A DNA stretch of 28,169 bases from assembly GCA_017558545.1 (NCBI GenBank), contig JAFYUG010000218.1, positions 1 to 28,169 on the forward strand, read 5' to 3'. A model generated the notes under the pieces. The model saw only the letters and a program-made list of their open reading frames with translations. It searched no databases and was not told the DNA's origin. Position numbers and translations under genes: made by a program. Of this stretch, positions 2 to 8,076 are shown in pieces (the first letter of the stretch is position 1; each line of letters starts with the position of its first letter). This DNA comes from Oscillospiraceae bacterium (GTDB lineage: Bacteria; Bacillota; Clostridia; Oscillospirales; Oscillospiraceae).

Positions 2-1147
2 ACCGTAACCGCCGCCGGTCACACCGAGGGCAAAGAAGTAGTAGAAAACGAAGTAGCCGCCACCTGCACTGTAGACGGTAGCTACGACACCGTGGTCTAC
101 TGCTCCGTTTGCGATGCAGAGCTGAGCAGAGTTCCCACTAAAGTACCCGCCGCCGGCCATACCATCGTAAAGGTAGAGGCAAAGGCACCCACTTGCACCG
201 AGGCTGGTTACGAAGCATACGAGTACTGCACTGAGTGCGACTACACCACTTACGTTGAGATTCCTGCCGCACATAAAATGGTAGATGTAGAGGCAAAGGA
301 AGCCACCTGCACTGAGGACGGTTATACCGCCCACAAGGCATGCTCCGAATGTGACTACACCGTAGGCAAGGAAGTAATTGCCGCCGGTCACACTATCGCT
401 CAGGGTGATGCCCAGACCAAGACCTGCGAACAGGATGGCTGGGAAGCCTATGAGTACTGCACCGAGTGCGACTATACCACTAAGGTAGTTATCCCCGCCG
501 GTCACACTATCGCTCAGGGTGAAGCCCAGACCAAGACCTGCACTCAGGACGGTTGGGCAGCATACGAGTACTGCACTGAGTGCGACTATACCACCAAGGA
601 AGTCATTCCTGCTGGTCACAACTATGTAGACGGCAAGTGCGATGCTTGCGGCGAAGCTGATCCCGATGCTTTCGCACCCGATATCGGTAACGGTAGCACC
701 ATCGTCGCTCCTGATGAAAACGGCACTGTAACCGTTAAGGCAGGAAACACCAGCATAGTTGTTAATGCGCCCGAAGGCGGTTGGAAGATTGGTGAAAACA
801 CCTTCACCGTATCTAGCACCAATGACGTAGCCTGCGTTGTTCTTGTCAAGACCGGCGACAGCTACAAGGTGCTCTCCGCAACTACCGATGAAAATAGTAT
901 TCATAGCTTCACTGCAACTCTTGACGCAGACAGCGAAATAGTAGTTGCAATGAAAGGTGACATAGATGGAAATGGACGACTGTCAGCAACTGAGGTCACC
1001 CAGATCAAATATGCTCAGCTTAGAAAGGGAAGCTTGGATACACTTCAGACCCACATCGCAGACGTGGATGGCAACGGACGACTGTCAGCAACCGAAGTCA
1101 CCCAGATAAAGTACGCACAGCTTAGAAAAGGCTCGCTTTCTTGGTAA
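2..1147 (+). CDS. 5'-truncated cell-surface protein: Cys/His-rich repeats, a beta-rich module and a C-terminal dockerin
   Basis: The frame is open from base 2 (TVTAAGHTEGKEVVENEVAATC...), so the true start is upstream of the window. Repeats have the form TC-x11-12-CxxC-x9-15-(G)H. The C-terminus has two EF-hand-like dockerin segments, GDIDGNGRLSATE and ADVDGNGRLSATE. Confidence 0.85.
   Translation, partial: TVTAAGHTEGKEVVENEVAATCTVDGSYDTVVYCSVCDAELSRVPTKVPAAGHTIVKVEAKAPTCTEAGYEAYEYCTECDYTTYVEIPAAHKMVDVEAKEATCTEDGYTAHKACSECDYTVGKEVIAAGHTIAQGDAQTKTCEQDGWEAYEYCTECDYTTKVVIPAGHTIAQGEAQTKTCTQDGWAAYEYCTECDYTTKEVIPAGHNYVDGKCDACGEADPDAFAPDIGNGSTIVAPDENGTVTVKAGNTSIVVNAPEGGWKIGENTFTVSSTNDVACVVLVKTGDSYKVLSATTDENSIHSFTATLDADSEIVVAMKGDIDGNGRLSATEVTQIKYAQLRKGSLDTLQTHIADVDGNGRLSATEVTQIKYAQLRKGSLSW
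11..650 (+). repeat. Intragenic tandem Cys3-His repeats (about 38 aa); five full units plus a terminal H-x5-CxxC cap
   Basis: The units starting at 383 and 497 are near-identical at DNA level with a 114-nt period (gccggtcacactatcgctcagggtga...). Confidence 0.85.
956..1144 (+). repeat. Dockerin duplicated segment: 24 identical aa at a 102-nt period
   Basis: 965-1036 and 1067-1138 both encode DGNGRLSATEVTQIKYAQLRKGSL. Confidence 0.85.
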
Positions 1148-1162
1148 AAGGAGAAGATTATT

Positions 1163-3265
1163 ATGAAAAAAATACTTTCCGTTTTTCTGGCAATAGTCAT
1201 GATTATGTCTCTCTGCAGCGGCATCATTGTTAATGCAGCCGGAGACGATGCAGTTATTGCCGTGGCACAGGGCAATTACACCCAGAGCGCTGATGCACAG
1301 GATATCACCATTCGCATTTCTACCCCCGGTGTAGGAGAAGCATACTGCACCTTTGGTATTTATGAAACTGTTCTTCCTGAAGGTTTTGTGGTTAAGAGCA
1401 TTACCAACAACAATACTAATCAGCCCATCGTTGAAGATGATGTAAATCTGGATTATGGTGCACTTACCTATTTCTCCACCAGCGATAATATCCCCGCTGA
1501 TACTTACTACGATGTAGTTATCTCTGCTCCTGCTAATGCTATTGGCGATGTAGAAGTTACTTTTGTTGGCATCGAAGTCGCAAAGGATGGCGGTGATACC
1601 ATGCTGGCTGAAATTGATGAACTCACTACCACCGTCACCATCAACGCTGCTCCCACTGCAGCCTACACCGCTGAGCTCGCAGGTCCTGCAGCTGCTCTTA
1701 CCGTAGGTGATGAGTTCACTGTTGACGTTGTTGTTGGCGGTACCACCGGCAATTTTGCATCCTCCAAGGTAGTTCTTACCTATGATTCCAGCATTCTGGG
1801 CTTCGATAAGGCTGATGCAAAGAACGTTCTGAACGGCGCAGAGATCGATGTTACTAACGGCACCATCACTATCATCGACCATGGTGTTACTCAGCAGAAC
1901 GGCACCGCATACACCCTCAACTTTAAGGCAAACACTGCAAGCGAAGGCACTAACGTTGCCCTCACCGCAGCTGCATTCAGCACCGCAGAAAATGCAGATG
2001 ATCAGGACCTCACCCCCGCTGATCCCCAGACCGATACCCTCACTGTAGTTATCAACAAGGCACAGCACAGCGTAGAGCTTCCTGCTATCTACACCGGTGC
2101 TGACAGCGTTGAAGATGGCGCAAGCTATACCTTCAAGCCCGAAACTGCCACCGGCGCATACTACAACTACGGCACTCCCACCGCAACCATGGATGGCCAG
2201 CCTGTAGCTGTTACCGGCGATGCAACCAACGGCTGGACTATCGTAGGCGTTACCGGCGACATCGTAATTAGCGGTACTCGTACTGAGAAGACCTACAACT
2301 TTGATATTACCGGCGAAGGCAGCGAACTCGTTACTGCTTCCGGCATTCCCACCTACAACACCGCATTCAGCTTCACTCTCCCCGAAGGACAGGATGTTGA
2401 AGGCATCAACGATGGTTACCACTATGAGATAGTTTCCGTCACTGTTGGCGGCAACGAGGCTGGTAGCTATGACGCAAACTCCAGAACCTATACCATCGTA
2501 GGCACCGATGTAACCGGCGATATCGCAGTTACCGTTAAGAAGGTTGTCGACAAGGCTAGCACCGTTACTGTTACTGTTAACGGCAGCGATGTTAAGGTTG
2601 ACGGCGCCAGTTCCGTTACCGTTGTAAAGGGCAGCGAAGTTACCCTTACCATGACCCCCGAAACCGGTTACGACTACACTGTTAAGGTTGGCGACACTGA
2701 CGTAACTGCTGATATTGCAGATGGCGAATACAAGTTCAATGCCGACGCATCTGTCACTGTTACCGCAACCAAGACCCTCGACATTGAAAGCGCTAAGGTT
2801 TATGAGTATGTCCAGCTGAACGCTGAAAAGGCTGAGAACGGCAGCAAGATGTGGCTTGTCACCATCAATGGCAACGGCACTGAGCAGATTGCAGGCAAGA
2901 CCTATACCTACGGTGGACAGAATATGCTTTGGTCCGATAAGTATCAGGCCTATGCAATTCTTGTTTGCGCAGATGCAGAGCCCAGTGTTACCGGCGGTTT
3001 CGCTCTGATTACTGTTGATGCTATTCCCACTGTCAACTACGACATGGACGTCAACGGTTCCGGCATCAAGGACGCCAACGATGCACAGCTGATTTACAAC
3101 ATGTACACTGCTGTTTACGGCGGCTTTACCACCAAGGTTCCCATGGAGAAGTTCCTGGCAGCTGACCAGAACGCAGATATCAACAATATCGGTGAGACCT
3201 ATGGTCTGCAGGTAGCTGACTCTCGCGTTATCATTAGCTATCTTATTAGCAATCTCAACGGTTGA
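1163..3265 (+). CDS. Secreted adaptor-scaffoldin-like protein: signal peptide, 1-2 cohesin-like domains, 3 Ig-like/divergent InlB-B repeats, X-like module and atypical dockerin
   Basis: SD aaggag precedes the ATG. Signal peptide is MKKILSVFLAIVMIMSLCSGIIVNA. Cohesin-like pattern GDEFTVDVVV...FASSKVVLTYDSSILGF lies at about 1661-2060. Dockerin-like DVNGSGIKDANDAQLIYNMY...ADQNAD starts at 3041. Confidence 0.75.
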   Translation: MKKILSVFLAIVMIMSLCSGIIVNAAGDDAVIAVAQGNYTQSADAQDITIRISTPGVGEAYCTFGIYETVLPEGFVVKSITNNNTNQPIVEDDVNLDYGALTYFSTSDNIPADTYYDVVISAPANAIGDVEVTFVGIEVAKDGGDTMLAEIDELTTTVTINAAPTAAYTAELAGPAAALTVGDEFTVDVVVGGTTGNFASSKVVLTYDSSILGFDKADAKNVLNGAEIDVTNGTITIIDHGVTQQNGTAYTLNFKANTASEGTNVALTAAAFSTAENADDQDLTPADPQTDTLTVVINKAQHSVELPAIYTGADSVEDGASYTFKPETATGAYYNYGTPTATMDGQPVAVTGDATNGWTIVGVTGDIVISGTRTEKTYNFDITGEGSELVTASGIPTYNTAFSFTLPEGQDVEGINDGYHYEIVSVTVGGNEAGSYDANSRTYTIVGTDVTGDIAVTVKKVVDKASTVTVTVNGSDVKVDGASSVTVVKGSEVTLTMTPETGYDYTVKVGDTDVTADIADGEYKFNADASVTVTATKTLDIESAKVYEYVQLNAEKAENGSKMWLVTINGNGTEQIAGKTYTYGGQNMLWSDKYQAYAILVCADAEPSVTGGFALITVDAIPTVNYDMDVNGSGIKDANDAQLIYNMYTAVYGGFTTKVPMEKFLAADQNADINNIGETYGLQVADSRVIISYLISNLNG

Positions 3266-3352
3266 TTTAGTTCGTTAAGAAACCTGTTCCTTTTCTGACA
3301 GCAGGGGAGGGGCAGACCGCATAATCCACAAGAGTGGTTTGTGAAAGACATA

Positions 3353-3393
3353 CTGCTTGGGCAGAGGGAGATTTTCTCCCTCTGCTCAAGCAG
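3353..3393 (+). other. 19-bp intergenic stem-loop without a U-tract (possible mRNA stability/processing element)
   Basis: ctgcttgggcagagggaga-ttt-tctccctctgctcaagcag, with one G.U pair. Confidence 0.7.
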
Positions 3394-3444
3394 CCCAATA
3401 AAACCTGTATTTATGTTCCAAATTCGAAAGGGGAAGATATTGAT

Positions 3445-4341
3445 ATGAAAAAAAGAATAAGTTTCCTCATTGCGATCTTCCTCTTGCTGTCTGTCATATC
3501 GATTCCGGTGTTTGCGGCCGGAGAGGAGCCAACCTTTGCTTTTGAGCTGAGTGTTGATGGCAGCGATACAAAGGAGGTAAAAACGGGAGATATAATAACC
3601 GTTACTTTGCACCTTGTCAGAACGGATTCTGACGAAGCATACACCATGTATGCCATGCAGGATGAAATTCGTTATAACAGCGAGTTTTTTGAACTGATAG
3701 AAGAAAGTGTCTTGCTCAATGACGGCGTTCAATACACAGACATTTCAGTTTCCGGTGGCTACAGAGAGCTTTATATGACTTTCCTTTCTTTCGGAGAAGG
3801 GGAGAATTGGGATGCAAAGACCCGTTTAGGTTCCTTCCAGTTAAAGGTTAAAGCCGATAACGGAGTTTCTACCATTACCAATGAAGATTTTCTTATATCT
3901 CTGCCCGATGGCAGTGGCGGTTATCCTTGTGAGGCTAATGAACTTACTGTCATCCTTACATCTGAGTGCGTGGTTGGGTTTGAATCTAACGGTGGCACGA
4001 AGATAGATAGTATAGCCGCGGTTTACGGCGAAACTATTAACCGTCCTGTAGATCCCACCCGAGAAGGTAAGACCTTTGAGGGCTGGTATAAGGATATCCA
4101 CCTTACCGAAGCATGGGATTTCGATAATGATACCGTTAAAGGCAATATGACACTCTATGCAAAATGGGCAGATGCGCCGGTGGAGATAGCTCCGGAGGAG
4201 ACTCCCGTAATCCCCAATGATGAGGGAGGGCGTGGCGGCAATGGTATGTCTATATGGCTTTGGATATTGCTTATAATTATCATTATCATTATTTGTTTCC
4301 TTGTCTATGTTCGTAAAAAAATGAACAAAGGAAAACATTAA
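3445..4341 (+). CDS. Cohesin domain + InlB B-repeat protein with a C-terminal transmembrane anchor
   Basis: Start reassigned to ATG 3445 (SD aagggga; signal peptide MKKRISFLIAIFLLLSVISIPVFA). Cohesin-like GDIITVTLHL...YAMQDEIRYNSEFFELI. B-repeat FESNGG...PTREGKTFEGWY...TLYAKW. Hydrophobic helix followed by RKKMNKGKH. Confidence 0.85.
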   Translation: MKKRISFLIAIFLLLSVISIPVFAAGEEPTFAFELSVDGSDTKEVKTGDIITVTLHLVRTDSDEAYTMYAMQDEIRYNSEFFELIEESVLLNDGVQYTDISVSGGYRELYMTFLSFGEGENWDAKTRLGSFQLKVKADNGVSTITNEDFLISLPDGSGGYPCEANELTVILTSECVVGFESNGGTKIDSIAAVYGETINRPVDPTREGKTFEGWYKDIHLTEAWDFDNDTVKGNMTLYAKWADAPVEIAPEETPVIPNDEGGRGGNGMSIWLWILLIIIIIIICFLVYVRKKMNKGKH

Positions 4342-4346
4342 AAAAG

Positions 4347-4381
4347 GGGACTGTCTGAAGCGACAACAGACCATTAGTCCC
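4347..4381 (+). other. Bulged intergenic stem-loop
   Basis: gggact-gtctg / cagac-(catt)-agtccc; no U-tract. Confidence 0.4.
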
Positions 4382-4453
4382 AAATGACCTTGAATAATAC
4401 AGACTATGTGCTGAAAAAATAAAATGATTAAGATGAAGAAAGGGGAAGAAGCA

Positions 4454-6994
4454 ATGATGAAAAAGTATATAAGCTTCCTCCTTGTGCTTATCCTGATGCT
4501 GTCCGCATTTCCTATGAGTAGCTTCGCAGCAAAGGGTGAGCCCGAATTTAACTTTGAACTTTCAATCGACGGGAAAGATACTAAAGAGGTAGTTCCCGGA
4601 GAGATAATAACTGTAAGCCTGCATCTTAACAGAATTGATGCCAATACTCCTTATACTATGTACGCCATGCAGGATGAAATACGCTATGATAGCAACTTTT
4701 TCCGCCTGGTTGAAGGTAGCGCCGTTATGGCAGATGGCATTAACTACACAGATATTTCAATTCTTGGTGGTTACAGAGAATTTTACATGAACTATCTGTC
4801 TTACTCCAACGGCAAACAGTGGGAAGCCAGAAAATTTGTAGGCTCATTTAAACTTGAAGTTATTGCTGATAGCGGTGTTTCCACAATCACCAATGAGGAC
4901 TATATGGTTTCCTACGAAAGTGGTATGGAATTCTATCCCTCTGAGGCCAATTTTCTTACTGTTGTAGTGTCAACCGATTGCACTGTGCGTTTCGCAACCA
5001 ATGGCGGCACTAAGGTTGATGATGTCAGAGCAATCTATGGCGAAAAGCTTTCCCGTCCTGCAGATCCTACCCGCGATGGCAAAGTGTTTGCAGGTTGGTA
5101 TAAGGATGTCCAGCTGACCCAGCCTTGGGACTTCGATAAGGACACTGTGAAGGGCAATATGACCCTCTACGCCAAGTGGAAGGACGCGGAACTTCCTCCC
5201 ACTTACTATACCCTCAGTTTCAACACCAATAACGGTGTACTGAGCTTTGACCCCAGCGGCAGATATGTTGCCGGTACCGAGATTGTGCTGCCCAATGTCA
5301 CCAGCGCTGGTTTTATATTTACCGGATGGGATGATGGCAACAAAATCTATTCTGCTGGAGATAAGTTTATAATTAATTCTACCGTAACTCTGGTTGCCCA
5401 CTGGAAGGCAGCTACCCCTGAAATGGTAGCGATTACATTCAATGGTGGCGGCGGCGTTATCGCAAATGACCCCAGCGGTGAATATAAGGTAGGCACTGAG
5501 CTTGTTCTTCCCACCGCTACCCGTGAGGGTTATACCTTCAAAGGCTGGAACGACGGAAAGAATATACTTGACGCCGGTATAAGCTTTGTAGTAGGGGAGA
5601 GCATTACTTTTGAGGCTGTATGGGAAAAGCTTCCCGAGGAGAAGGTAAATCTTACCCTGAACCCCAATGGCGGTACAGTTAAAAAGAACCCCAGCGGCGA
5701 ATATGCCCCTGGCAGCGAGGTTATTCTTCCCGCTGCTGAGCGCGAAGGCTTCGTGTTCAAGGGATGGAATGACGGAACCAATGTCCATGTAGCCGGAACT
5801 GCAATTACCCTCACATCCGATGTAAGCATGACGGCGGTGTGGGAGAGTGGTCCCGTTGATAAGGTCACTCTTAAGCTCGACCTCAATGGCGGTAAGCTCA
5901 GTTGGGACCCCAGCGGTGAGCACGCAAAGGGCACTGTTTTGAAGCTGCCCGAGCCCAACCGTGAAGGCTTCGTATTCAAAGGCTGGAAGCTGGGCAAGGT
6001 AGTCTACGCAGCAGGGGATGAGGTCACCCTCAACGAGTCCATGACCTTCAAGGCCTCTTGGGAGAAGGCAAGTATAAGCGCTGAAAAGGTTACTTATACC
6101 CTCGATCTTGATGGCGGCACCCTCGCATGGGACCCCAGCGGTGAATATCCCATTGGCACAGTTGTAAAGCTGCCCGATCCTTATCGCGCAGGCTATGTCC
6201 TTGATTACTGGGAGTGCAACGGCAAGATTTATGCCGCAACCATGGAAATAACCTTGAATAGCTCTATGAGCTTCAAGGCTATCTGGAAAGAAGCAGCTGA
6301 CGAGCCCGTATGGAAGCCCAGTTATAATATTGATTCCCTTATTACTGATAAGCATATTAACTATGTTGTAGGTTATTCTGACGGAACAATTCTTCCCAAG
6401 AACAACATAACCCGCGCTGAGGTTGCAGTTATCTTCTATAGACTCCTATCCGAGGACTTCTTGGCTAAGTATGAGTCTACCAACAATAACTACCTGGATG
6501 TTAAGGATGGAATGTGGCATAACAAGGCCATATCCACCCTCAGCAATGCAGGAATACTCACGGGCTATCCCGATGGCAACTTCTATCCCAACAAAAACAT
6601 AACCCGCGCCGAGCTTGCGGCCATAATTGACCGCTTCGCAGTGGCAGAGGGCGGCGAATCCAGCTTCAGCGACGTAGCAGGCCACTGGGCATATGATAAT
6701 ATTGCTACTGCCGAGGTAAATGGATGGATTACCGGATATCCTGACGGTACATTCCAGCCCAATAAGGCTATAACTCGTGCCGAGACCTTTGCAGTTGTTA
6801 ACAGACTCCTTGGCAGATATGTTAATAGCTTTAATTGTCTGCTGCCCGGCATGAACCAGTTCATAGATAATATGAATACTTCTGCCTGGTATTACTTCGA
6901 TGTTCAGGAAGCAACCAATAACCATGATTATACTCGTCTTGAAGACGGCAAGTATGAGAGATGGACCAAGCTCCTTGAGAACATAGTGTATTAA
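4454..6994 (+). CDS. Cohesin domain + six InlB B-repeats + three SLH domains (cell-wall-anchored scaffoldin-like protein)
   Basis: SD aagggga, then ATG 4454 (or 4457) and a signal peptide. The N-terminal ~240 aa are collinear with the 3445 ORF. Six GW...W repeats follow. SLH motifs: GYSDGTILPKNNITRAE, GYPDGNFYPNKNITRAE, GYPDGTFQPNKAITRAE. Confidence 0.9.
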   Translation: MMKKYISFLLVLILMLSAFPMSSFAAKGEPEFNFELSIDGKDTKEVVPGEIITVSLHLNRIDANTPYTMYAMQDEIRYDSNFFRLVEGSAVMADGINYTDISILGGYREFYMNYLSYSNGKQWEARKFVGSFKLEVIADSGVSTITNEDYMVSYESGMEFYPSEANFLTVVVSTDCTVRFATNGGTKVDDVRAIYGEKLSRPADPTRDGKVFAGWYKDVQLTQPWDFDKDTVKGNMTLYAKWKDAELPPTYYTLSFNTNNGVLSFDPSGRYVAGTEIVLPNVTSAGFIFTGWDDGNKIYSAGDKFIINSTVTLVAHWKAATPEMVAITFNGGGGVIANDPSGEYKVGTELVLPTATREGYTFKGWNDGKNILDAGISFVVGESITFEAVWEKLPEEKVNLTLNPNGGTVKKNPSGEYAPGSEVILPAAEREGFVFKGWNDGTNVHVAGTAITLTSDVSMTAVWESGPVDKVTLKLDLNGGKLSWDPSGEHAKGTVLKLPEPNREGFVFKGWKLGKVVYAAGDEVTLNESMTFKASWEKASISAEKVTYTLDLDGGTLAWDPSGEYPIGTVVKLPDPYRAGYVLDYWECNGKIYAATMEITLNSSMSFKAIWKEAADEPVWKPSYNIDSLITDKHINYVVGYSDGTILPKNNITRAEVAVIFYRLLSEDFLAKYESTNNNYLDVKDGMWHNKAISTLSNAGILTGYPDGNFYPNKNITRAELAAIIDRFAVAEGGESSFSDVAGHWAYDNIATAEVNGWITGYPDGTFQPNKAITRAETFAVVNRLLGRYVNSFNCLLPGMNQFIDNMNTSAWYYFDVQEATNNHDYTRLEDGKYERWTKLLENIVY
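4980..6290 (+). repeat. Six tandem InlB B-type (Listeria-Bacteroides) repeats of about 73 aa
   Basis: A recurrent (D/N)PSG motif (ccccagcgg) appears about every 220 nt in repeats 2-6, with conserved W residues. Confidence 0.8.
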
Positions 6995-6996
6995 TT

Positions 6997-7051
6997 AAAT
7001 AAAAATAACTTGATGGAAACACAATTTGTTCCATCAAGTTATTTTTATTTT
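6997..7051 (+). terminator. Intrinsic terminator (bidirectional-type) closing the surface cluster
   Basis: Perfect 22-bp inverted repeat aaataaaaataacttgatggaa / ttccatcaagttatttttattt. Confidence 0.85.
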
Positions 7052-7386: not shown

Positions 7387-8076
7387 TTATATAACAATGG
7401 CTCCGCCGATATCTATCAGCTTATCATTTAATAGATTAATATAGTTAAAACCGCTATTGTGTATGAATTTAGAGATTTCTTCTCCGTTTGAGTGAGTTTT
7501 TATATTACCAATAAAGTATACAGTATTTTCACATACAAATGACGCGCCGCCAATAAAGCCGTAATTATACCCCGGCAATTCTATTTCTCCGCTCTTAATT
7601 AAAAGAACGTCAAAACCTTTTTCGGTTAATGTATTTGCTATACCGACGTCTGATGTTATTACCGCTTGGTCATTAAGGCACAAAGCTGTACATCTGCAAT
7701 ATCCTTGCTTTACAGAAATAATCTCAGTGCATATATTAAGTATTTCTTCATCTGTAAATTTAGGATTATGTAATAATTTATCACCTATTAATGCGCAGCA
7801 TAAATTTACATCATTCGGGTATTGGGAATTCTGCTTAAATTTGCTATATTCTACGTTATAAGCCCCATTAGTGAAAAAATTAACAAGGTTGTAGCGGCGC
7901 AGATAATCTGCCATAATTATATGATTTTTGTACTTAAAAACGGACAAATCACAGTGTCCGGCTAGTCTTTGGTCTAAATTGGGGTTATCAGGGATGTATA
8001 ATACATCAAAATTTTGATTTTTGAGGGGAATTTCCAGTAATTCCTTATACCTCTCCCCTATTAATACTGTTTTCAT
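7387..8076 (-). CDS. DUF6873 family protein (GME-fold-like)
   Basis: Motifs GHCDL, YPNDV, KQGYCRC, ITSD.GI and LPGYNYGFIGGAS. ATGA overlap with the radA stop. Confidence 0.7.
   Translation of the reverse strand: MKTVLIGERYKELLEIPLKNQNFDVLYIPDNPNLDQRLAGHCDLSVFKYKNHIIMADYLRRYNLVNFFTNGAYNVEYSKFKQNSQYPNDVNLCCALIGDKLLHNPKFTDEEILNICTEIISVKQGYCRCTALCLNDQAVITSDVGIANTLTEKGFDVLLIKSGEIELPGYNYGFIGGASFVCENTVYFIGNIKTHSNGEEISKFIHNSGFNYINLLNDKLIDIGGAIVI

Follow-up and report, generated by a model that had tools for sequence, protein, structure and literature searches.

The window analysed here is a stretch of 28,169 nucleotides from an Oscillospiraceae bacterium (GenBank assembly GCA_017558545.1, contig JAFYUG010000218.1), corresponding to the entire contig C197 of a 1.9 Mb source genome that is assembled in 413 contigs and is 67% complete. 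Positions 2-6994 carry four co-oriented open reading frames (ORFs) on the + strand, g1 to g4, which an earlier note, made from the letters alone, had read as a cohesin-dockerin surface assembly with a cargo, an adaptor and two alternative anchors. The contig begins inside g1, the first gene, which is therefore 5'-truncated. The cassette and its two hairpins comprise the following features, in which predicted structures are AlphaFold2 (AF2) models with confidence given as the predicted local distance difference test (pLDDT), lengths are in amino acids (aa), and Ig stands for immunoglobulin:

2-1147, + strand: g1, last 381 aa of a giant secreted cargo protein whose gene runs off the contig start (ORF call)
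2-652, + strand: g1 Cys/His repeats, five units of ~38 aa (GH...C...CxxC) followed by an H-x5-CxxC cap (read from the translation)
953-1144, + strand: g1 dockerin Doc1, of the 'W-end' type, with two identical 24-aa halves (Dockerin_1)
1163-3265, + strand: g2, putative adaptor scaffoldin of 700 aa with a signal peptide (ORF, AF2 model)
1247-1651, + strand: g2 cohesin D1, residues 29-163 (family profile against solved structures)
1652-2062, + strand: g2 cohesin D2, residues 164-300 (family profile against solved structures)
2063-2782, + strand: g2 stalk of three Ig-like beta-sandwich domains, residues 301-540 (AF2, pLDDT mostly 78-96)
2783-3262, + strand: g2 X module (residues 541-617) and putative dockerin Doc2 (residues 618-700) (family profile, AF2)
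3353-3393, + strand: hairpin with a perfect 19-bp stem, lying between g2 and g3 and not followed by a U-run (-37.1 kcal/mol, z -9.2)
3445-4341, + strand: g3, signal peptide, cohesin, one Flg_new B-repeat and a C-terminal transmembrane helix (Pfam, AF2, start with ribosome-binding site)
4246-4311, + strand: g3 transmembrane helix, residues 305-326 (translation)
4454-6994, + strand: g4, signal peptide, cohesin, six Flg_new B-repeats and three SLH domains (Pfam, similarity to g3)
4538-4990, + strand: g4 cohesin (sub-threshold Cohesin match)
about 4979-6292, + strand: g4 six Flg_new B-repeats (Pfam)
6317-6811, + strand: g4 three SLH domains (Pfam)
6997-7050, + strand: terminator, hairpin and U-run (-25.6 kcal/mol, z -8.8)

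The cohesin assignment of the two anchors comes from the predicted fold of g3. The AF2 model of g3 has a pLDDT of 89, rising above 90 across the N-terminal domain, and the top 33 Protein Data Bank (PDB) matches returned by Foldseek were all cohesins (E-values down to 7e-9, target TM-scores of 0.35-0.74). The N-terminal domain is thus predicted to be a cohesin beta-sandwich (jelly-roll). A whole-protein profile of the anchor family searched against PDB sequences recovered InlB B-repeats only and no cohesin, so that the fold search was needed. The N-terminal part of g4 is ~60% identical to g3 over ~255 aa and, on this identity, is likely to share the fold; g4 scored 25.4 bits for Cohesin when its neighbours in frame were included, the relative P0126 scored 25.6 bits, and many relatives carry precomputed PF00963 matches. 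The remaining anchor modules scored above their cut-offs, with Flg_new at 189.6 bits in six stretches of g4 and 70.9 bits in one stretch of g3, and SLH at 118.7 bits in three stretches of g4. The family to which both anchors belong comprises at least 769 clusters, and the cohesins in the A5 alignment are 47-70% identical to that of g3.

The adaptor gene g2 encodes a member of a family of at least 143 proteins of ~660-740 aa, several of which have precomputed Cohesin and/or Dockerin_1 matches. As a single sequence g2 matched no Pfam family, whether cohesin, dockerin or carbohydrate-binding module (CBM). Its AF2 model (mean pLDDT 78) consists of a signal peptide, two beta-sandwiches, three Ig-like domains, an X-like domain and a poorly modelled helical C-terminus. 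A Foldseek search with the whole 700-aa model returned mostly strings of Ig-like domains, with cohesin dyads ranking third and fifth and uninformative TM-scores, and domain-level profiles were therefore used. The D1 family profile matched the cohesins 4ums (7e-9) and 1g1k (4e-8) over nearly their full length; that of D2 matched the type II cohesin dyad 3l8q (5e-10, first half only) and NagJ cohesins. D1 and D2 are homologous to each other (hhalign probability 94%), and both are remote relatives of the anchor cohesin. The Doc2 family profile matched the solved dockerins 1daq (2.6e-4), 8ajy_B and 4uyq, and relatives of g2 carry PF00404. Doc2 aligns with Doc1 at an hhalign probability of 96% and an identity of 17%, and its second calcium loop contains a 7-residue insertion that also occurs in the relatives P0007 and P0011.

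In g1, the Cys/His repeats are followed by a beta-rich segment and a C-terminal Dockerin_1 domain. Doc1 scored 24.6 bits against the PF00404 cut-off of 22.9 bits (28.4 bits in the genome search) and has a D-x-D-G-N-G loop in each of its two 24-aa repeats, as expected of a Dockerin_1 member. The two halves (965-1036 and 1067-1138) encode the same protein despite 15 nucleotide differences in 12 of 24 codons, all of them synonymous, a pattern indicative of purifying selection for a symmetric dockerin of the dual-binding type. An exact copy of the g2 protein is encoded, in the same gene order, on four further contigs in the European Nucleotide Archive, and one of these, L102, carries an identical cassette that extends g1 by 500 residues to 881 aa with the 5' end still open. 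The extended protein contains Flg_new-like repeats, a beta-helix-like unit, about ten Cys repeats, a beta-rich domain and the dockerin, and its only Pfam matches are Dockerin_1 and a weak Flg_new. It is collinear with the cargo of locus L002, the 2607-aa protein P0124 (498 aa aligned at 41% identity, the C-terminus at 45%), which begins with a signal peptide and whose sole Pfam match at E <= 0.01 is a GLUG motif. The g1 Cys/His repeats matched no Pfam family; their neighbours in the Atlas, unnamed clusters of Bacillota, carry weak zinc-ribbon-like labels, a lead only.

These domain assignments bear out the architecture first read from the sequence: Cys/His repeats and a dockerin in g1; a signal peptide, cohesins, an Ig stalk and a different, putative dockerin in g2; a cohesin, one B-repeat and a transmembrane anchor in g3; and a paralogous cohesin with six B-repeats and three SLH domains in g4. 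The ORF starts had to be revised, g3 beginning at ATG 3445 and g4 at ATG 4454, each preceded by the same ribosome-binding site.

A search of the source genome with Pfam and custom hidden Markov models (HMMs) identified three dockerins and five cohesins. The dockerins belong to g1, g2 and a 969-aa protein on contig C147, and the cohesins are D1, D2, those of g3 and g4, and that of a small, N-terminally membrane-anchored protein beside the C147 gene. None of the three dockerin proteins in this 67%-complete genome has a recognised carbohydrate-active enzyme (CAZyme) domain, and no enzyme domain was found with Pfam in the 881-aa form of g1 or in the 2607-aa P0124. Likewise, no glycoside hydrolase (GH), CBM or protease was detected by Pfam in the 28 cargos of related cassettes. 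The families recovered from these cargos were Dockerin_1 (20/28), PQQ_2 (7), Big_2 (4), BspA-type LRR_5 (3), Cadherin-like (3), LRR_8 (2), FNIP (2) and a few single matches, with Glug also among them, all being families of binding type. The hallmarks of a cellulosome or amylosome, CAZyme-borne dockerins and a CBM on the scaffoldin, were absent from the 67%-complete genome with its truncated g1. The earlier note had seen no GH, CBM or protease motif, and had held that a standard CAZyme at the N-terminus of g1 would make the locus an ordinary mini-cellulosome; the sequence recovered so far contains none, and the genome-wide dockerin count agrees.

The C147 genes form a second cohesin-dockerin pair (locus L007, C147 827-4429, minus strand). 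The 969-aa protein is secreted, scores 24.2 bits for Dockerin_1 and shows a sub-threshold similarity to a prenyltransferase / squalene-cyclase-like alpha-alpha toroid; the small protein encoded after it has an N-terminal transmembrane helix and a Cohesin match of 26.0 bits. The C147 dockerin could be a partner for D2 of g2.

Conservation of the cassette was examined in 78 loci drawn from a scan of one genome per species, in which ORFs were called and scored with purpose-built HMMs. Most of these loci lie in metagenome-assembled genomes (MAGs) of gut Clostridia (Oscillospiraceae, Faecousia, Vescimonas, Flemingiibacterium, Christensenella and Lachnospiraceae). The set also has three cultured strains, Hominiventricola filiformis CLA-AA-H276, Brotocaccenecus cirricatena CLA-AA-H272 and Marseille-Q4145, and several loci per genome are common. 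The loci contain 89 Doc2-bearing ORFs, 82 of which have room downstream. An anchor-type cohesin-Flg_new gene directly follows the Doc2 ORF in 46 of these 82, lies within 4 kb in another 13 and is found just upstream in two. On the other side of the adaptor, a large ORF is present within 300 bp upstream in 36 of the 48 cases with room, and nearly all of these ORFs end in a dockerin. In 24 of the 89 Doc2 proteins, the Ig-X-Doc2 tail is borne directly by giants of more than 800 aa (about 860-3358 aa). The gene order is thus kept across the 78 loci, in line with the check on related MAGs that had been proposed at the outset.

Variants of the layout were also recorded. Loci L003 (7718-7813) and L004 (335-430) have a 31-aa mini-ORF just upstream of the adaptor in a two-gene version consisting of adaptor and SLH anchor. 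Locus L005 (10192-13625), and also L058, L074, L029 and L080, contain extra tiers between adaptor and anchor, namely a ~550-aa adaptor-like protein with a weaker Doc2 and a ~230-aa cohesin-dockerin protein, which suggests longer chains than in the window. Cassettes of the Clostridia type are further found on MAG contigs labelled Coriobacteriaceae (eight loci, one bin, two on L081) and Alloprevotella; these records (L017, L030, L031, L038, L046, L053, L081 and L082) are probably mis-binned or mislabelled rather than products of cross-phylum transfer.

The partners within the cassette were approached through covariation. Cargo dockerins fall into three clear types, W-ending (like that of g1), 'FPAE' and 'VMAL'. 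When the adaptor D1 sequences were clustered at 30% identity, the clusters tracked cargo dockerin type: 14 of 16 FPAE loci fell in one cluster, all five VMAL loci in another, and the W-type loci in five further clusters, none of them common to FPAE or VMAL. The D1 of the window clusters with that of L001, the locus with the cargo most closely related to g1. A comparison of modules, limited to adaptor pairs with X-Doc2 units at least 50% identical, gave the following identities:

D1: 18% between different cargo types (maximum 24%), 40% within the same type
D2: 39% between different cargo types, 50% within the same type
Ig stalk: 46% between different cargo types, 56% within the same type
X-Doc2: 54% between different cargo types, 61% within the same type

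Anchor cohesins, compared over all the scored locus pairs with no X-Doc2 filter, were 45% identical across cargo types and 56% within them. By this comparison D1 is the one module exchanged together with the cargo dockerin, and the anchor cohesin appears indifferent to cargo type. The covariation of D1 and the adjacency of Doc2 and anchor genes together support a pairing, which we infer from these two lines of evidence, of the cargo dockerin with D1 and of X-Doc2 with the anchor cohesin. The same pairing, of the first dockerin with a g2 cohesin and of the second with the cohesins of g3 and g4, had been predicted before these comparisons were made.

We therefore favour, with a probability of about 70%, a three-tier cohesin-dockerin cassette of non-cellulosomal type, by which a spore-forming gut bacterium of the Clostridia would present a giant adhesin-like protein on its surface. 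In this model the secreted g1 cargo, with its B-repeats, beta-helix-like unit, many Cys repeats and Ig-like domain, would plug its symmetric dockerin into D1 of the adaptor. The Ig-like stalk of g2 ends in the X-dockerin unit Doc2, which would in turn dock onto g3 or g4 through the conserved cohesin that each carries. The former would be held in the membrane by its C-terminal transmembrane helix, and the latter on a wall polymer by its three SLH domains, raised on six B-repeats. The physical contacts in this scheme, their calcium dependence, the adhesive role of the cargo and the reason for having two anchors are all matters that we infer. The hierarchy of cargo, adaptor and anchored cohesins without an enzyme is that of the earlier note, and predicted folds, profile matches, synteny and D1 covariation now speak for it.

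Several observations weigh against this model. As single sequences g3 and g4 score only 21.6 and 19.9 bits for Cohesin (PF00963), against a cut-off of 24.1 bits, and Doc2 has a pLDDT below 50 in the AF2 model and no single-sequence Pfam match. D2 is left without an assigned partner, the N-terminus of g1 beyond 881 aa is missing, and the genome is incomplete. The loci used for covariation are related and not phylogenetically independent, and when cargo-dockerin identity was simply rank-correlated with that of each adaptor module, rho came to 0.33-0.44 for all modules, with no separation; the type-stratified comparison was used for this reason. Finally, a four-chain complex prediction with D1-D2, the g3 cohesin, X-Doc2 and the Doc1 partner yielded an ipSAE of 0.06 against a mark of 0.32, a result that we list here although it speaks neither way.

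An alternative is a flat arrangement, in which the dockerins of cargo and adaptor both bind anchor cohesins and the adaptor is a second passenger, its own cohesin-like modules binding something else or nothing. The complex prediction fell short of its mark, X-Doc2 sits directly on giants in 24 of 89 cases so that an adaptor is not needed, and two anchors could serve two passengers. A shared anchor socket is, however, hard to match with at least three very different types of cargo dockerin, across which the anchor cohesins stay 34-63% identical and D1 falls to 11-24%, and Doc1 and Doc2 are themselves only 17% identical; we consider the flat arrangement unlikely. The sub-threshold Cohesin scores, the low fold confidence of Doc2 and the complex prediction that stayed under its mark would also fit independent surface proteins, each acting alone, whose cohesin- and dockerin-like modules have ceased to pair and are structural beta-sandwich and EF-hand-like spacers. 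Yet neither g1 nor g2 carries an anchor, the gene order is kept across distant genomes, and the anchor cohesin retains 47-70% identity to g3. The silent divergence of the two Doc1 halves and the covariation of D1 with cargo type are likewise difficult to reconcile with spacers, and we regard this explanation as improbable.

The truncation of g1 and the incompleteness of the genome leave room for an ordinary mini-cellulosome or amylosome, with CAZymes encoded in the missing N-terminus or in unassembled genes and organised by the scaffold, and Ruminococcus is known to have small cohesin systems that include enzymes and membrane-anchored scaffoldins. Against this stand the three dockerins of the genome, none of them on a recognised CAZyme, the lack of an enzyme domain in the 881-aa g1 and its 2607-aa collinear relative, the absence of GH, CBM and protease from all 28 related cargos, and an adaptor devoid of a CBM; we regard this explanation as very unlikely. 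The enzyme-free display cassette remains our preferred model. A broader version of it, which we put forward tentatively and think rather doubtful as a whole, is a plug-and-play platform, moving horizontally, on which gut Clostridia mount giant adhesins. Such a platform would keep the Ig-X-Doc2 and cohesin-B-repeat chassis and swap the cargo and its D1 socket as a unit, with g3 capturing the adaptor at the secretion site and passing it to g4, or with the two anchors setting two display heights.

In 30 genomes of near relatives, drawn from the genus, family and order of the source genome, no full adaptor was found, and an anchor-type cohesin was found in one of the 30 (another genus of the same family), where it lies beside a giant X-Doc2 protein. 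Downstream of the cassette, on the opposite strand, the window encodes DUF6873, RadA, an amidase, SpoIVA, NIF3, TrmK, a sigma factor and RuvABC, housekeeping genes that place the cassette in the chromosome of a spore-forming member of the Clostridia. Two congeners retain the DUF6873-RadA-amidase block with a 337-aa gene 183 bp from DUF6873, where the present genome has the cassette, and an insertion at the DUF6873 site is therefore most likely; its junction would lie outside the assembled contigs. The cassette is an accessory element, probably acquired horizontally.

The orthologue of the 337-aa gene in the present genome is 86% identical and lies on the 2.9-kb contig C264. Past the terminator of this gene, at C264 2644-2884, the contig ends in GC-rich, repeat-like sequence, which may be the reason for the assembly break just before the cassette. 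The DUF6873 protein of the window (7387-8076) is only ~50% identical to those of the congeners (L096-L099), and for the genes that neighbour DUF6873 in the congeners, on the side corresponding to the cassette, the present genome has orthologues of 65-89% identity on C264 and C256.

With respect to transcription, the four co-oriented genes of the earlier note stand, and its single terminator is only roughly right, since a second, stronger hairpin lies between g2 and g3. The 6997-7050 terminator closes the cassette and sits between convergent genes; a consensus terminator scan did not pick it up. The 3353-3393 hairpin may act as a partial terminator, or else affect transcript stability, and so set how much cargo and adaptor is made relative to anchor.

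No contig of the present genome overlaps the start of the window in a search for the 5' end of g1. Contig C135, whose end cuts an ORF that encodes a transglutaminase-like core, Big_2 and Cys repeats, was considered as the missing part, but the repeat also occurs on at least five other contigs, so that no link between C135 and g1 can be drawn. The g1-type Cys/His repeat recurs in other secreted proteins on C135, C128, C143, C259, C267 and C349; in the C143 protein, the C-terminal repeats look SLH-like by eye only.

Should the proposed pairing be true, cohesin-dockerin recognition would serve in many uncultured gut Clostridia as a general mount for very large, variable adhesin-like proteins and not as an organiser of enzymes, with a bearing on attachment to particles, mucus or other cells. 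The covariation of D1 provides a falsifiable specificity map, from cargo dockerin type to D1 type, and candidate new orthogonal cohesin-dockerin pairs for protein engineering. The adaptor family is present in at least 78 loci, including three cultured strains, and the idea is therefore testable at the bench.

The closest parallels in overall layout are found in cellulosomes. In Clostridium thermocellum, the X-dockerin II of CipA pairs with the SLH-anchored type II cohesin proteins SdbA, OlpB and Orf2p, and Acetivibrio cellulolyticus builds a chain from ScaA, the adaptor ScaB and ScaC. The cassette shares with the CipA/SdbA and ScaA/ScaB/ScaC systems the order from dockerin cargo through scaffoldin cohesin and X-dockerin to an SLH-anchored cohesin, as well as an adaptor with a cohesin dyad and a symmetric cargo dockerin, and the PDB entries 3l8q, 4uyq, 2b59 and 5m0y are among the structure or profile matches of the window modules. 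Unlike those chains, it contains neither enzymes nor a CBM and resides in a genome in which only three dockerins were found. Its anchor stalk is built of Flg_new (InlB B-repeat) units, a membrane-anchored paralogue stands beside the SLH anchor, and its cohesins and Doc2 are too divergent for single-sequence detection by Pfam.

The anchoring of an adhesin through an X-dockerin and a cohesin is already known from the Ruminococcus CttA-ScaE pair (PMC7456326). In that system the X-dockerin of CttA is bound to the ScaE cohesin, CttA binds cellulose and is part of a full cellulosome, and ScaE is held by sortase (PMC7456326, PMC11001878). As in CttA-ScaE, a non-enzymatic adhesin would here be tethered to the cell by way of an X-dockerin and one wall-bound cohesin; the cassette differs in its extra adaptor tier and its SLH or transmembrane anchors, and no cellulosome is seen in the organism. 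Membrane-anchored scaffoldins have been described in atypical ruminococcal cellulosome-like systems, those of R. difficilis and the amylosomes of the R. bromii type (PMC13463774 / 10.64898/2026.02.05.704116, PMC4611034), and Ruminococcus has transmembrane-anchored scaffoldins and Flg domains in scaffoldin-like proteins (PMC13463774). R. difficilis encodes 80 dockerin proteins, amylases among them (PMC13463774 / 10.64898/2026.02.05.704116). The cassette resembles these ruminococcal systems in its C-terminally membrane-held cohesin proteins, its Flg domains and its divergent cohesins that are detectable mainly by structure, but in place of many dockerin proteins it has a closed set of four genes and an adhesin-like cargo. 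Our literature searches found no description of this cassette, and what distinguishes it from the systems above is the combination of a closed, enzyme-free gene set, a cohesin-B-repeat anchor family, paralogous membrane and wall anchors, and a D1 module that appears to be swapped together with the cargo.

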